Positions 38,002-44,038 of a stretch of DNA of 64,000 nucleotides are shown here, in pieces. This DNA comes from Spirochaetia bacterium. GTDB taxonomy: Bacteria; Spirochaetota; Spirochaetia; SZUA-6; Bin103. Position 1 is the stretch's first letter. The number at the start of each line of letters is the position of its first letter. Both the position numbers and the translations under genes were made by a program. The stretch is from contig CBDBDQ010000005.1 in assembly GCA_965203905.1 (NCBI GenBank), forward strand, positions 2,080,001 through 2,144,000, read 5' to 3'. The notes beneath the pieces are model-generated. The model worked only from the letters and a program-made list of their open reading frames with translations. It did not search any database and was not told the DNA's origin.

Positions 38002-38162
38002 GATGGCTATCAAGATACCACCACAGGTGGCGTCTCACGGTCGCGGAAAAGCGCGACCCTTGTCAATTCCCGCAGCGCGGCAGCGAGTCACGGGAGCAAG
38101 GGCTGGCTACCACTGATCGGTTGGCCACCGTATCATGGCGCGTGATACAGGTTGCTGCGCCG

Positions 38163-38916
38163 GTGAACGAGGCTCCACCATACCGGATCACCCCGGAAAT
38201 AGTGTCCCTGATCGAACGGATCGGCGAGGGAATCGGGCGCGCCGAGGCTGCCGGCGTCGCTCAGGACCTCCGGCTGCGGCGCATCAACCGCATCCGAACG
38301 ATCCAGGGCTCACTGGCGATCGAGGGAAACACGCTGAGCGAACGGCAGGTGGCCACCCTGCTCGACGGCAAGCCGGTCGTGGCCCCGTTGCGGGAGATCC
38401 AGGAGGCGCGCGACGCCATCAAGGCATACGACCGGTACGAAGGATGGGCGCCGGACAGTCGGAGCGACCTGCTGAGTGCGCACCATGTTCTGATGGCCGG
38501 TCTGCTGGATGCGTCCGGGCCGCTACCGCCGTGGCGAGGTGATGGTCGGGGGAGCTGAAGGGGTGCAGCACATCGGCCCTCCAGCCGCCCGTGTACCGGA
38601 GTTGATGGCCAACCTGCTGCAATGGGTTGGCAGCACCGAGGAGCATCCGCTGATCGCCGGTTCGGTGTTCCACTACGAGTTCGAGTTCATCCATCCGTTC
38701 GAGGATGGGAACGGGCGGATGGGGCGGCTGTGGCAGACGCTGATCCTGACCCGCTGGCGGGACCTGTTCGCCCATCTTCCGGTAGAGAGCATGGTTCATG
38801 CTCATCAGAGCGCGTACTACGACGCCATCCGGCAGAGTTCGGCGGCGGGCGAGAGCACGACCTTCATCGCCTTCATGCTGGAGATGATCCGGCTGGCCGT
38901 AACCGAGCAGACCTGA
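38163..38916 (+). pseudogene. Fic family protein, frameshifted
   Basis: N-half (NRIRTIQGSLAIEGNTL) and C-half (HPFEDGNGRMGR Fic motif) are in different frames; extra base near 38514 (GCG T CCG GGC CGC TAC). Confidence 0.85.
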
Positions 38917-38946
38917 ACCGGCTGGGTGAGCGGGATTCCGATAACG

Positions 38947-39149
38947 ATGACCTTTTCCGAGTGATCGAAGCGATCGATCGGTTGTCCCACGATGAACAGG
39001 AAGCTCTCCTGGATATTGTACGGCGCCGCGTGTCCGAGGCACGTCGATCGCGTCTGATCCGGGCGGTCCGGGAAGCTCGACGAGATTATTCCGCGGGCGA
39101 CTTCCGCGTCGCCACTCCCAGTGAACTGGCACGTGATATATCCGAATGA
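38947..39149 (+). pseudogene. small helical antitoxin-like gene, frameshifted
   Basis: ATG ACC TTT TCC GAG TGA; adding one G gives MTFSEVIEAIDRLSHDEQEALLDIVRRR...; stop overlaps the toxin ATG. Confidence 0.6.
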
Positions 39150-39370
39150 ACCATGTGCTGATCAGCACAAGGAGATTCGAACGAGACGCCAGGAACCTGA
39201 CCACGAGACGTCCACAGGTTCGTGCTGACTTCGAGTTCACCTTGGGCTTGCTGGCGGAGGATGCGTTTCACCCCGGTCTCAAGACCCACAAGCTGAAAGG
39301 AGCGCTCGAAGGATCGTATAAGCCTGCAGCGTCTATTGACAGAACAGACTCTCACCAAGAATCCGGCTAA
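39146..39370 (+). pseudogene. RelE/YafQ-like toxin, broken after about codon 58
   Basis: STRRFERD...FHPGLKTHKLKG.LEG; the expected ACSV continuation is out of frame at ~39320 and then stops. Confidence 0.7.
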
Positions 39371-39388
39371 GCCATCGGTACAGCCGGT

Positions 39389-39446
39389 TCAGATAGTGCC
39401 TGACAGGATCGGATGGAGCGGATGGTCCCACGGGCCGCCGACCGTC
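39389..39446 (-). repeat. orphan copy of the phyH-like gene 3' end
   Basis: 39404-39446 matches 44040-44082 at 38 of 43 nt; both encode TVGGPWDHPLHPIL; this copy ends SGTI-stop. Confidence 0.85.
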
Positions 39447-39462
39447 TACGAGGTTCTTCGGA

Positions 39463-40088
39463 TCACCGTCCCGGCCGGTAGTCCCTGGGATCAAGACAAG
39501 CATCGTAGAAGTGCTGGCCCATCGGGAACCAGTCAGTGCGGTCGATCCCTCGTGTCGAGGTCGCGCCCGGCCCGCGCGGAAACGCAGACGCCACCTTCAG
39601 CCATCGGGCGACGCTCCGCGAGATATCGCGGACTTCTCCTGCGACCTCGGACAGATCCTGGTCCTGACTGAACATGATCGCCACATCCAACTCGGCGTTG
39701 CGGGCCATGCGTACAACATCAAGCCCGAGCCACAGGTCGATCCCCTTCTCGCGATCCACGGGGATCTCGTGGACCAAGCCGTCGGGCAGCCGCACACGTT
39801 CCACCCGATAGCGCAGACACCGGATGGTGACGACGATACCGGCCCGTCGCATGGCCGTCAGGCGACGTGTCCAGTAGCCGTGCCACATGGGAGCCCTGTC
39901 CACGGTTGGAGTGCCGGTGTAGAAACGGACACCGTGATTGACCCAGCCTCGATCGGCGCACACGGCGTCGGCGAGCTTGCGCGGATCGTAGTTGGGATGG
40001 TGGTGGCCGAACGCGTCCTTTGCGTGTCGGAAGGTTCTGCCCGTCGATGAACGAAACGGCACGCTTGATTTCGGGGCTCGGCGGGCAT
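39463..40088 (-). pseudogene. NYN (LabA/DUF88, PIN-like) ribonuclease, two frameshifts near the 5' end
   Basis: Reconstructed MPAEPEIKRAVSFIDGQNL-FRHAKDAFG...EKGIDL...FSQDQDL; breaks at ~40073-40076 and ~40031-40034. Confidence 0.85.
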
Positions 40089-40093
40089 GTGGG

Positions 40094-40144
40094 AAAAAAA
40101 ACCCCGCCGGGGCCTTCCGGCAAGTCCGACGGGGGCTTATTGTC
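40094..40144 (-). ncRNA. candidate ~50-nt leader RNA: hairpin plus U8 terminator upstream of the NYN gene
   Basis: CCCCGUCGG/CCGGCGGGG stem, bulge, GCC-GGAA-GGC apical hairpin, U8 ending 5 nt before the NYN ATG. Confidence 0.55.
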
Positions 40145-40148
40145 AAGT

Positions 40149-40178
40149 AGTATAGACGCGCCGGAGGCGGGCTGCCAA
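40149..40178 (-). promoter_or_regulatory. sigma70-type promoter for the leader RNA/NYN unit
   Basis: Minus strand TTGGCA (40178-40173), 18 bp spacer, TATACT (40154-40149). Confidence 0.6.
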
Positions 40179-40312
40179 TCTGCTGTGCGTGCGTGGCAGG
40201 ACTATCCCACGCTACGCGACAAGCCGGCTGCAATCGCTACTCCCGTTGCCCTCGACCGACGCCCAACTGCCCAACCGCACAACCGAGCAACTCGCACCCT
40301 GGCGAGCGCCGA

Positions 40313-41899
40313 TCACGTGGCCCCGTCTGGCGGCGACCCGTCCTCCCGATGCCGGAAGCGGTGGTGGGCTCGACAGCGTAGGCGCAAGTTCCCGGGCTCG
40401 GCGCTGCCGCCGAGCGCAAAGGGAACGATGTGGTCGAGCTCCAGCAGGAAGCGGGACCCGCAGCGCCGTCCGCTGTGCGGATCGACGTAACTGCAGCGGC
40501 CACCGTCGCGGCGCCACACCTCGCGCTTCACTGGTGCCGGGATGTAGCGGGATCGACGCGCCCGGTGGGGCGGCTGCGCACTGCCTCCGGACGGGCCGGA
40601 TGCCTCGCGCTGCGGCCGCGAACGGCCATCGAGTTGGGCTGCTCCTGCCCGCAGCGCCGCCCCTGCCCGCTTCGCCGGCGAAGGAGCGTGGCGACCGCGA
40701 TCCGCCGCTCCCGGCGCGGTCGGCATGCTCTGGTCCGCCGGCGGCGTCGGTACGGAGGCGCGGGACCCACGATCTGTCACCGACTTCGCTGCCGAAGTAG
40801 CGGTACCGGTCGCCACCGCTGCTGGCTTGGCACTCACCGGCGTGCTGCTGCCGCAAGTCTCGCACCCCGACGGCGGCGCGGGCGGCGCTGCCACCGCCGA
40901 GGTGCCGGCGTGGCCAATCCCGCGCGCGGGTTCCTCTGCGGACAGCGCTCCCGGCGCCGGGGTGCTGCCACCGGCGATCGTGCCCTCCGGCGGCGGCACT
41001 GCGGGGTGCTCTTGCGCGCCCCGCTTCGCCGGCGAAGTCGTCCCGTCTGCCGGCCCTTCCTGTTCCTTTGGCTCCGGCGCCTGGCCCGCTTTCGCCTCCC
41101 GGCGCCCACCTCTGCGCCCGCGCGGCGGCCGCCCCGGGTCGTAGCGCTGCAGGCCGTCCTGCACCAGCCGCTCCACCAGTTGCCCCAGCGTCAGGTGCGG
41201 GTCCACGTGCGACAGCAGTACCCGTAGCTGCTCGATCCCGCACTGACACGCGGCGTCGATCACTACCTTCAGCTCCCAGCGGCCCTCGCCCAGCGCCCGC
41301 ATGCGATCGGCCGGTGGCGCCAGCTCGGGAGCCACCCCGGCCAACAACTGCTTCACCTCGCGGGTGCTCTTGCCGCTCGCCTGCGCCACCAGCTCCTGCC
41401 GCTGCGCCGCGTCCAGCGCCGGCAGCGGTCGCGCTGGCGCCGCTGCCCCGGGCCCGGAAGCCCCCGCCTCCAGCGTCGTCCCCGTGCCGAGCGGCAGCAG
41501 CTCCGGTGCCGCGGGTGCCGCGCCGTAGTCCGCGGCGGCGGTCGCCGTGCGCTGCAGGAGATCGAAGGTGTTCTGCAACTGCGCCGCCGCGCTCAGGGAG
41601 AGCGAGCCGTCCTGCAGCCGCTCGCGTGACCCGGCGGTCTCGGAGCACAGGCGCATGGCCTTTATGCGACGCCAAGCGGCACCCTCGCTGTAGCCCAGCT
41701 CGCGGACGGCGTAGTCGAACAGGCTGGAGAACCCGAGGCGCAGGTGGAGGTGGCGGGCGTGGATCTCGCGCAGGTGGTCGAGGACGGCGAGCTGCAGCGC
41801 CTGCTCGTGCAGGACGAGGGACTTGGTGTGTGCCAGCAGCACCTGGTCGGGGAGCCCGGAGAGCGCGGAGGCGAAGCCGGAAGCGGTCGCGGCATCCAT
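40313..41899 (-). CDS. large HNH endonuclease with helical N-terminal domain and low-complexity linker
   Basis: C-term VWRRDGGRC...C...LELDHIVPFALGG...NLRLRCRAHH; N-term LGFSSLFDYAVRELGYSEGAAWRRI. Confidence 0.88.
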   Translation of the reverse strand: MDAATASGFASALSGLPDQVLLAHTKSLVLHEQALQLAVLDHLREIHARHLHLRLGFSSLFDYAVRELGYSEGAAWRRIKAMRLCSETAGSRERLQDGSLSLSAAAQLQNTFDLLQRTATAAADYGAAPAAPELLPLGTGTTLEAGASGPGAAAPARPLPALDAAQRQELVAQASGKSTREVKQLLAGVAPELAPPADRMRALGEGRWELKVVIDAACQCGIEQLRVLLSHVDPHLTLGQLVERLVQDGLQRYDPGRPPRGRRGGRREAKAGQAPEPKEQEGPADGTTSPAKRGAQEHPAVPPPEGTIAGGSTPAPGALSAEEPARGIGHAGTSAVAAPPAPPSGCETCGSSTPVSAKPAAVATGTATSAAKSVTDRGSRASVPTPPADQSMPTAPGAADRGRHAPSPAKRAGAALRAGAAQLDGRSRPQREASGPSGGSAQPPHRARRSRYIPAPVKREVWRRDGGRCSYVDPHSGRRCGSRFLLELDHIVPFALGGSAEPGNLRLRCRAHHRFRHREDGSPPDGAT

Positions 41900-42480: not shown

Positions 42481-44038
42481 GGGTGCATTCCGCCAGTGTG
42501 GTGCGGTCAGGCAGCCTCGAGCTGGGTCTGGGTGGATTCTGGGGTGGGCGATGAGGGAAGCAGGCTTGCGTAGTCGTCCCAGAAGCGACGGCTCACCACG
42601 GAGGCGCGGAGCTGGAGCATCTCCTTGGCTCCGTCCAACGACCACGACATGCCACTCTGCTTCATGCGCTTGGCGACCACGTTCTTGCAGGCTCCCTCGA
42701 CTACCCCGCTGCCGATCGGCAGACCGCACGACCGATACAGCGGGTAGTCCATGCGCTGCTGGTTGGCCGTGAAGTAGTTGATCTCGCCCTGGAGCTCGTA
42801 GCACTGCTGCTTGCTGTAGCGCCCACTGGCGTGCAATTCCTGCAGTTCCTTGATTACGGCGGCCACGCACCCCTGGCGCAGCAGGCTGCGCCAGCGCTTG
42901 AAGGATCTCTTGAACTGCTCGCTGCCCTCGCCGTACAACAGCCTGCTGATCTTCCCCAAGTGATCGCAGGCATGCCAGAAATCGAGGATCTGCCACACCT
43001 TCTGCCCGGGTTCGGCCAACTGTGAGATCCGCTCCCATATCCAATGCGCTCCATCGCCCAGAATCACCAGCACCAGCGCTGCCGGGTGAGCGCTGCGCCG
43101 GCTCATTTCCACCTCGATCCGGGGGAAGAACTCGTCAGCATGTTCGATCCCGGTGACATAGGAGGTCTTGGTGCAGTGCGCTACACCCTCCCGGTCCACC
43201 TTCACGGCTGATACCGTGGCTACCTTGGAGTCCCGAAACACGCGATCGTAACTCTTTTTCCCATCTTCAGTTACCCGCTCGTTCGCGCGCGTCGCCACCT
43301 TCCCCGCGTCGATGCCCATGACCATCGTCTCGGTGATCTTCTCGCGCGCCGCCACCGGCTTGTCGGCACGCTCGGCAATCTCCCTCTGGCGTTGCTGCTC
43401 CAACCCGTCAGCGACCGCCCGCACCATCTCGAACGCCTTGTTCATCGATACCAACTCGCGCCCGTCGGGCCGCAACACCTCGTGAAATTGCTCCAGCCCC
43501 TGCTGGTAGGAGTGTTCGGCACAGAACCGCGCCATGAAGTACTGGCACCCAGGCGTGTACCCGCCCGCGATACCCAGTTGCTCTGCCCGCGGCACCCACC
43601 CCTTGCCGCTGCCACCGAGCGGCGCATAGTAGGCGCGCACCAAGGTGATCAGACCAAACAGCCCGTGGATCGCCTTCTGCCGTTTCCCGACAAAGCGGTA
43701 CCGCACCTCGCCGCGGGTGGCCCGCGCACCGACATACCCATCACCGAGTTGCTTACCCCAGCGCTGCATCGCGGCGCGCCCCAGCTCGATCAGCGACTTC
43801 AGCAAACACAACTCGGCCGTCAGCAGGTCTCGGTCCCTGCTGTCGGGGCTTAGATCGACTCCGTACGCGGTCTTGCAAAAACGGAGCAACTCCGTTACCA
43901 AGGTCTCACTCATTTTAGTCCCCTCCCAGAGACGGGTAGATGCTTACCACATCATCGAATCTCTGGGAGGGGGTCTCTCTATTAACTCTATTTCCCGTAC
44001 CACAGATGCCGCAGGTGCCACAGAGAAAGAATGCACCC
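42481..44038 (-). mobile_element. ISKra4-like insertion sequence, 1558 bp, 9-bp target duplication
   Basis: Terminal IRs GGGTGCATTC (42481-42490) / GAATGCACCC (44029-44038); direct repeat CCAGGATTG at 42472-42480 and 44039-44047. Confidence 0.92.
42507..43913 (-). CDS. ISKra4-family DDE transposase
   Basis: LGDGAHWIW, ILDFWHACDHL, YFTANQQRMDY, PIGSGVVEGACK, KRMKQSGMSW. Confidence 0.92.
   Translation of the reverse strand: MSETLVTELLRFCKTAYGVDLSPDSRDRDLLTAELCLLKSLIELGRAAMQRWGKQLGDGYVGARATRGEVRYRFVGKRQKAIHGLFGLITLVRAYYAPLGGSGKGWVPRAEQLGIAGGYTPGCQYFMARFCAEHSYQQGLEQFHEVLRPDGRELVSMNKAFEMVRAVADGLEQQRQREIAERADKPVAAREKITETMVMGIDAGKVATRANERVTEDGKKSYDRVFRDSKVATVSAVKVDREGVAHCTKTSYVTGIEHADEFFPRIEVEMSRRSAHPAALVLVILGDGAHWIWERISQLAEPGQKVWQILDFWHACDHLGKISRLLYGEGSEQFKRSFKRWRSLLRQGCVAAVIKELQELHASGRYSKQQCYELQGEINYFTANQQRMDYPLYRSCGLPIGSGVVEGACKNVVAKRMKQSGMSWSLDGAKEMLQLRASVVSRRFWDDYASLLPSSPTPESTQTQLEAA

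Follow-up and report, generated by a model that had tools for sequence, protein, structure and literature searches.

The locus described here lies on the minus strand of the window, by which we mean the whole 64,000-nucleotide stretch of a Spirochaetia bacterium contig that was analyzed. Its gene is a broken copy of a NYN nuclease gene (PF01936, LabA/COG1432-like; 39463..40088), as assigned from its homologues, from Pfam, and from the fold match of an intact homologue. Upstream of the gene, a promoter scan detects a sigma70-type promoter with the −35 hexamer TTGGCA (40173..40178) and the −10 hexamer TATACT (40149..40154). This TTGGCA-N18-TATACT site is the sole promoter-like site in the region 38500–41500 (1 versus 0.2 expected). 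The predicted ∼50-nt RNA (40094..40143) is placed by the promoter and by a covariance model match, and it comprises a bulged hairpin of 33 nt (40102..40134, from RNAfold and covariation) and a U8 tract that is a predicted intrinsic terminator (40094..40101). The hairpin is organized in a 9-bp basal stem P1 (40134–40126/40110–40102), an ACUU/C internal loop (40125–40122/40111), a 3-bp stem P2 (40121–40119/40114–40112), and a GGAA apical loop (40118–40115). The U8 tract is followed by five bases and then by the NYN ATG at 40088, with no Shine-Dalgarno sequence between tract and ATG at this locus. All of these elements, including the ATG spacing and the missing Shine-Dalgarno sequence, had been described in the first-pass annotation, and we found each of them in place. 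Because the −10 hexamer ends 14 nt before the stem, the RNA likely begins with the conserved A at 40141 or close to it, which would make it ∼50 nt long. The word TTGACA at 40146–40141 was rejected, as homologues do not conserve it.

By itself, the window locus offers just a fair promoter and a terminator-like hairpin. The hairpin alone has a fold z-score of −1.87, with 9 of 200 shuffles equally stable (RNAfold), and the scanned region of the window contains one terminator-like site, versus 1.2 expected by chance. The hairpin stands above chance because it is conserved and covarying, not because of its fold energy. A covariance model of the RNA matches the window at 40146–40092 with 58.3 bits and has no other match in the genome. 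The Rfam search that had been proposed together with the annotation returns no family for the window RNA (best E-value 1.8, far under gathering level).

Compared with its homologues, the NYN gene of the window carries two frameshifts that flank the first aspartate motif: a C run behind codon 5 that is longer by one base (40073..40076) and two missing bases just past the DGQNL motif (40030..40031). This copy is thus a pseudogene by its sequence, in agreement with the earlier suspicion that two frameshifts had probably killed it. Both frameshifts, without other differences, are also found in a Logan contig of run X1, which may be the window's own source sample. As this contig carries both, the frameshifts are no consensus slip, and their reading as an assembly artefact is unsupported. 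The intact state is seen in related contigs of the four runs compared.

The main frame of the window copy has 994 relatives among 1,135 candidates. Its closest relatives are 208–211 amino acids long, share 81–85% identity with it, and are nearly all labeled PF01936. An intact homologue passes the PF01936 cut-off and matches no other Pfam family, and the longest single frame of the window copy has no Pfam match. Searches with the NYN protein gave nothing significant against PDB sequences and nothing over the cut-off in NCBIfam. The AlphaFold model of the intact homologue (pLDDT 93) has VPA0982 (PDB code 2qip) as its best structural match (E-value 2.6e-7), and Asp-15, Asp-118, Asp-143, and Asp-145 are invariant in all 25 aligned homologue rows. 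According to this model, the intact homologues possess a PIN-like fold with a conserved acidic active site. NYN and PIN folds are RNases, and from the active site we infer RNase activity for the NYN subfamily of the window.

The module has a multicopy HNH element on one side, and a convergent YafQ-like pair and a split Fic gene on the other. The HNH element consists of a 528-amino acid ORF with a C-terminal HNH domain (40195–41899, minus strand) and a conserved ∼125-nt 3′ tail. ORF and tail form a dispersed repeat with 58 BLAST hits of at least 500 nt and 40 tail hits in the genome. The repeat resembles an uncharacterized HNH-encoding mobile element, with 17 nt separating its end from the NYN promoter. 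A link between the HNH and NYN genes was rejected, since the HNH gene belongs to this dispersed repeat and the NYN promoter lies behind none of the 13 other copies listed. On the plus strand, a small ORF is followed by a 74-amino acid YafQ-like ORF (38919–39370; weak Pfam match, E-value 0.007); the two are likely a type II toxin–antitoxin pair, judging from their sequences, and converge with the NYN gene. Next to this pair, two overlapping frames together make up a Fic-family gene that is probably another frameshifted pseudogene (38121–38916, plus strand). A 468-amino acid ORF with a weak UPF0236 hit (42507–43913, minus strand) is probably a transposase, in keeping with the role of that family.

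To follow the RNA across homologues, we scanned species-representative genomes and analyzed the best 80 of 432 relatives of the NYN protein. A hairpin script found the hairpin in the upstream regions of 78 of them, and a covariance model, aligned from 52 homologous loci and the window, matched upstream of all 80 (28 of them outside the training set), with a single match per locus in 78. These loci carry 13 phylum labels. The RNA adjoins the NYN gene in 79 of the 80 loci; in the remaining one (L025:2507–2885), an ORF of ∼125 codons is inserted between them. The model also matched 12 of 13 loci from viral contigs, the 13th having no upstream DNA. The proteins behind this conserved RNA are only ∼50% identical. 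In the basal stem, 96.4% of the alignment cells are paired, with 40 two-sided changes that affect seven of the nine pairs. None of 500 shuffles reaches this value, and slid registers are only 36–58% paired. The hairpin is conserved and covarying upstream of homologues, which bears out the main prediction of the first-pass annotation.

The promoter is conserved as well. Of 77 distinct upstream regions, 60 have a TTGAC-like −35 word in the corresponding position, and the −10 hexamer lies 13–19 nt from the stem (mode 14) in 33 of the 37 homologues with a strict-scan promoter. In this strict scan, 71 of 79 homologous loci show hairpin and U-tract, and 37 of 79 show the promoter in addition, compared with 26 and 0 of 1,500 control ORFs from the window genome. 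The NYN gene thus stays linked to the promoter, hairpin, and U-tract across loci, and the structure covaries.

Within the RNA, conservation is concentrated in the 5′ strand, the basal stem, and the internal loop, as judged by the alignments. Among 156 distinct RNAs, 147 retain an A at a distance of seven bases from the start of the stem, and 143 retain a U at position −4. The G–C pair under the internal loop is invariant (53 of 53), and the next A is found in at least 90%. Of the bulge and tetraloop, which had earlier been described as more elaborate than a plain terminator, the GNRA loop is not a key element: it occurs in 132 of the 156 RNAs, 24 have another loop, and in some RNAs the apical arm is 19–37 bases longer. 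The U8 tail of the window is atypical, as 128 of the 156 RNAs have a UUA tail and most homologues a tail of the UUAUUU type. The highest mutual information is found between positions −4 and +3 (UA in 126, AU in 11, UU in 17, and CA in 2 RNAs), with the AU cases coming from few clades and thus from few independent events. The conserved structure is nested and leaves few bases unpaired, as seen with folding tools that do not predict pseudoknots. Taken together, the alignments show unpaired and invariant positions that are kept beyond the needs of a terminator.

The reverse search, starting from the RNA, used a degenerate pattern. It returned at least 120 stretches from metagenomes, 80 of which came with flanks, in addition to 9 viral ones. 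The resulting 89 loci reduce to 85 distinct ones, 6 of which are undecidable, leaving 79. Behind the RNA, the NYN frame is open over its full length at 45 of these 79 loci, although a motif residue is altered at five of them; 18 have a broken NYN gene, 7 only the first codons of one, and 9 no NYN gene, the split between the last two classes being read by eye. Thus, 70 of 79 loci retain the gene or a remnant, and no other gene family recurs behind the RNA in this set. The motif is tied exclusively to NYN genes, as had been surmised for the RNA of the window. The NYN gene is broken or lost at 34 of the 79 loci; a NYN gene of this family without the RNA was never seen, whereas the RNA without the gene was seen often. 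These counts show an RNA that is dedicated to the NYN family and often outlasts it. Part of this asymmetry could stem from target size, 50 nt versus 630 nt, and from the search itself, whose pattern picks up only RNAs that are intact. Damaged NYN genes also occur in 8 of the 80 protein-selected loci, and the breakage counts may include errors in metagenome-assembled genomes (MAGs). Two loci carry additional copies: L074 has a second, orphan RNA 142 nt upstream (L074:300–355), and in L079 the whole module is duplicated with the first NYN gene broken (L079:1794–1851).

The family is patchily distributed. It was found in 9 of 251 genomes in a sample of one phylum and in 4 of 301 genomes of the phylum to which the window belongs, of which two are distant. 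Identical NYN proteins occur in two MAGs, one actinobacterial and the other gammaproteobacterial, although mis-binning may account for this. On a quick tree of 71 proteins, the RNA variants follow the proteins, as three variants require 3 changes, versus 29 when shuffled, with hosts from 13 phylum labels; 7 of 78 rows lacking an open frame were left out, L025 and L046 are absent, and the clustering reflects kinship and is no sign of co-evolution. There was no match in 50,697 cultured phage records or in the E. coli genomes, and one close match in 72,556 plasmid records. Intact modules are present in cultured strains of Blastochloris (L036), Nitratireductor (L037), Novosphingobium (L042), and Brevifollis (L061). 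The nearest ORFs at 59 loci belong to no fixed family. At 16 of them (19 with three softer cases), the nearest ORF encodes a restriction–modification, toxin–antitoxin, defense, integrase, or transposase function, a raw count without background rate. The module is thus sporadically distributed and, judging from these sequence comparisons, probably mobile.

The order of promoter, RNA, terminator, and RNase gene is that of the type III toxin–antitoxin systems ToxIN, CptIN, and TenpIN, with which the module also shares horizontal spread and truncated toxin genes behind an intact RNA. A terminator between RNA and gene under one promoter is present, going by sequence features alone. The type III-like layout originally suggested stands in this respect, but membership in the ToxIN/CptIN/TenpIN class does not. 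These systems have tandem repeats before a separate terminator and pseudoknot antitoxins (PMC3401426). As repeats before a separate terminator are required, their layout is ruled out here: there is no repeat array at 39300–40400, and the single-copy RNA is itself the terminator. No pseudoknot was seen with folding tools that do not predict them. The protein also differs. ToxN has a Kid/MazF-like fold, whereas the window family is NYN/PIN-like, with PF01936 as its only Pfam match and 2qip as its best fold match, and it does not fall into the ToxN, CptN, or TenpN families. Type I systems differ in their antisense RNAs; here, the RNA lies on the strand of the gene, and its complementarity to its own mRNA extends over 7 nt at most, a consequence of hairpin symmetry.

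Closest in design is AbiF/RCd22, in which a terminated noncoding RNA represses in cis and neutralizes AbiF in trans (10.1101/2025.04.15.648962). Both systems have one promoter, a short terminated noncoding RNA, and a single RNase gene that has no promoter of its own and is expressed from read-through mRNA. The AbiF toxin is a HEPN (Abi_2) protein and RCd22 has 98–132 nt with two motif copies and a separate terminator, whereas the NYN module has a PIN/NYN protein and one ∼50-nt hairpin that is motif and terminator at once. The abiF motif (RF03085) does not match the window RNA, and the locus has no Abi_2/HEPN protein. On this comparison, we regard the module as one that would work like an AbiF-type RNA-antitoxin module and falls into no described family.

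The protein itself resembles NYN.COG1432/LabA-like nucleases in its PF01936 match, its 2qip fold, and its four conserved aspartates. NYN.COG1432 comprises 8,754 sequences and is listed as of unknown function, and the passages on it in the source mention no upstream RNA or antitoxin role (PMC5499597). HEC-09, a PADLOC candidate defense family, shares with the window family an NYN protein in defense islands but represents a different subfamily, its profile scoring only weakly against the window family (25–47 bits). When cloned with its native promoter region, HEC-09 gave no phage protection, and the text available from that study reports no RNA (10.1101/2024.01.29.577857). For DUF3800, several unrelated structured RNAs, some with terminators, have been tied to one uncharacterized protein family (PMC5737381). 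Those RNAs occur on both sides of the gene and in both orientations; the NYN RNA, in contrast, is always upstream in sense, and the proteins differ. In keeping with the initial statement that no described NYN system of this kind was known, the literature searched describes no NYN gene for which an RNA acts as antitoxin or leader; this search largely excludes subscription papers, and supplements may list motifs.

We favor, with somewhat better than even confidence, the interpretation that the locus represents a new RNA-antitoxin module in which the conserved ∼50-nt structured RNA is the antitoxin of a PIN-fold NYN toxin. With most transcripts ending at the U-tract, the small RNA would be made in excess, while leaky read-through, owing to the interrupted UUAUU tail and a weak or hidden ribosome site, would provide little enzyme. 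The RNA would contact the enzyme with the 5′ strand, the basal stem, and the internal loop. Once host transcription stops, upon phage infection or loss of the element, the RNA would decay and the freed nuclease would cause growth arrest, as in AbiF/RCd22. This antitoxin interpretation draws on the presence of the RNA at every protein-selected locus and all but one viral locus, its covariation, the conservation specific to the RNA, the asymmetry of gene loss, the agreement of RNA variants with the protein tree, the sporadic spread, the neighboring genes, the small number of promoter-hairpin-U-tract sites in the genome, and the AbiF precedent. Against it speak the lack of tandem repeats, the absence of a visible pseudoknot, the negative result with HEC-09, and the scarcity of the module in phage, E. 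coli, and plasmid records.

RNases that control their own expression in feedback loops provide the model for a different reading. Here, NYN would act purely in cis, by binding to or cutting the hairpin carried on its own read-through mRNA; the terminator would limit expression, and the short RNA would be a by-product rather than an antidote. We consider such a leader the main rival, though less probable than the antitoxin interpretation. It accounts well for the strict sense position of the RNA immediately upstream of the gene, and it also predicts family-specific conservation of the RNA and its co-transfer. Moreover, none of the 25 loci with a spacer of up to 16 nt between RNA tail and start has a Shine-Dalgarno sequence after the tail, so that a ribosome site may be hidden in the G-rich 3′ arm of the stem. 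Homologues do not conserve a pairing of this arm with the start of the reading frame (median rank 0.46; top-ranked in 2 of 74). Overall, however, spacers range from 8 to 85 nt in length, and an SD-like site is present within 21 of the 49 longer ones, so that coupling to translation is loose. The exchange of UA for AU at positions −4/+3 suggests a closed, end-paired RNA product, albeit from few events, and a costly gene would account for the frequent gene decay and the defense-island neighbors better than a housekeeping RNase would. The antitoxin and autoregulatory functions can coexist, as they do in AbiF.

It is improbable that the RNA is just a constitutive attenuator that lowers expression of a mildly harmful gene without any RNA–protein contact, or a generic leader of accessory genes. 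The terminator anatomy would fit this, as would the short segment of 7–9 nt before the stem and the P1 probability of at least 0.9 in all three examples. The short segment leaves no room for an antiterminator, and together with the stable P1 it precludes a switch; likewise, with no Rfam match at gathering level, nothing points to a riboswitch or switchable attenuator. But terminators need no conserved internal loop, invariant pair, or 5′ strand, the tail is conserved as an interrupted UUA, and the near-exclusive association with NYN genes does not suit a generic leader. Least probable of all, and quite improbable in our view, is a functional RNA (a trans-acting small RNA, decoy, or cofactor) that NYN processes or uses for targeting: its persistence behind broken or lost genes and the extra copies in L074 and L079 would fit, but the RNA has no variable guide-like segment and hardly any complementarity to its own mRNA, and its small target size explains the persistence.

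Leaders of this layout precede other NYN genes. In clades at 25–30% identity (L236, L237, and L258–L264), the base of the stem is related, and the internal loop is a different one. The window genome contains seven other NYN genes, and by eye six of them have a promoter, a structured RNA, and a U-tract just upstream; the seventh, a NYN-OST-HTH fusion, has no such leader. The layout was found at none of 15 parsed loci (30 fetched) among the top-scoring PF01936 loci that resemble the fusion type. Two of the paralogues score 147 and 134 bits with the HEC-09 profile, and both have promoter-RNA-U-tract leaders. The leaders of four different NYN paralogues of this genome (L096, L097, L099, and L100) end in a similar short GC-rich hairpin, capped by UUCG in three of them, with different hairpins upstream of it. 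For prophage relatives of the paralogue L098, a script detects hairpin and U-tract at 12 of 15 distinct loci, and their own stem covaries in six of seven pairs (11 sequences, with weaker slid controls). By eye, leaders are also seen in an E. coli phage and at three plasmid loci (IncN, ColRNAI, and Eleftheria), and none at a Paenarthrobacter plasmid NYN locus. The E. coli phage EC.P3 carries a distant NYN family with a promoter-hairpin-U-tract leader (L315), and an equally scoring NYN protein occurs in 48 records of Stx2a-converting phages. Viral scans with two NYN paralogues found nothing, and Rfam matched none of the leaders of 20 NYN loci from other families (elsewhere only plasmid RNAI).

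The 8-Mb window genome has 17 promoter-hairpin-U-tract sites in total, four before NYN genes and one before a DUF3800 gene, where a 60-nt structured RNA lies directly upstream (L322:110–1097; G000:C5:1185709). Four promoter-hairpin-U-tract sites (G000, C3:56266, C5:1372030, C5:1933270, and C5:1934012) share a GCCGC-based stem and a pyrimidine-rich motif and form a repeated small-RNA-like element.

As a tentative extension, for which we see somewhat less than an even chance, stand-alone bacterial NYN/LabA-like nucleases may as a class be toxins under structured small RNAs of their own, with a different RNA family for each subfamily and a role in phage defense or maintenance of mobile elements. 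They would then form a widespread but overlooked set of RNA-antitoxin systems based on the PIN fold. If the antitoxin interpretation is true, a large nuclease family of unknown function would gain a toxin–antitoxin role. Cloning such a gene with its native leader would then mask the activity of the nuclease, which bears on the negative result for HEC-09. The RNA-antitoxin systems compared here use toxins of the ToxN type or HEPN toxins, and the RNA motif is absent from Rfam; a PIN-fold toxin under a single 50-nt hairpin that doubles as terminator would thus represent a minimal new architecture.
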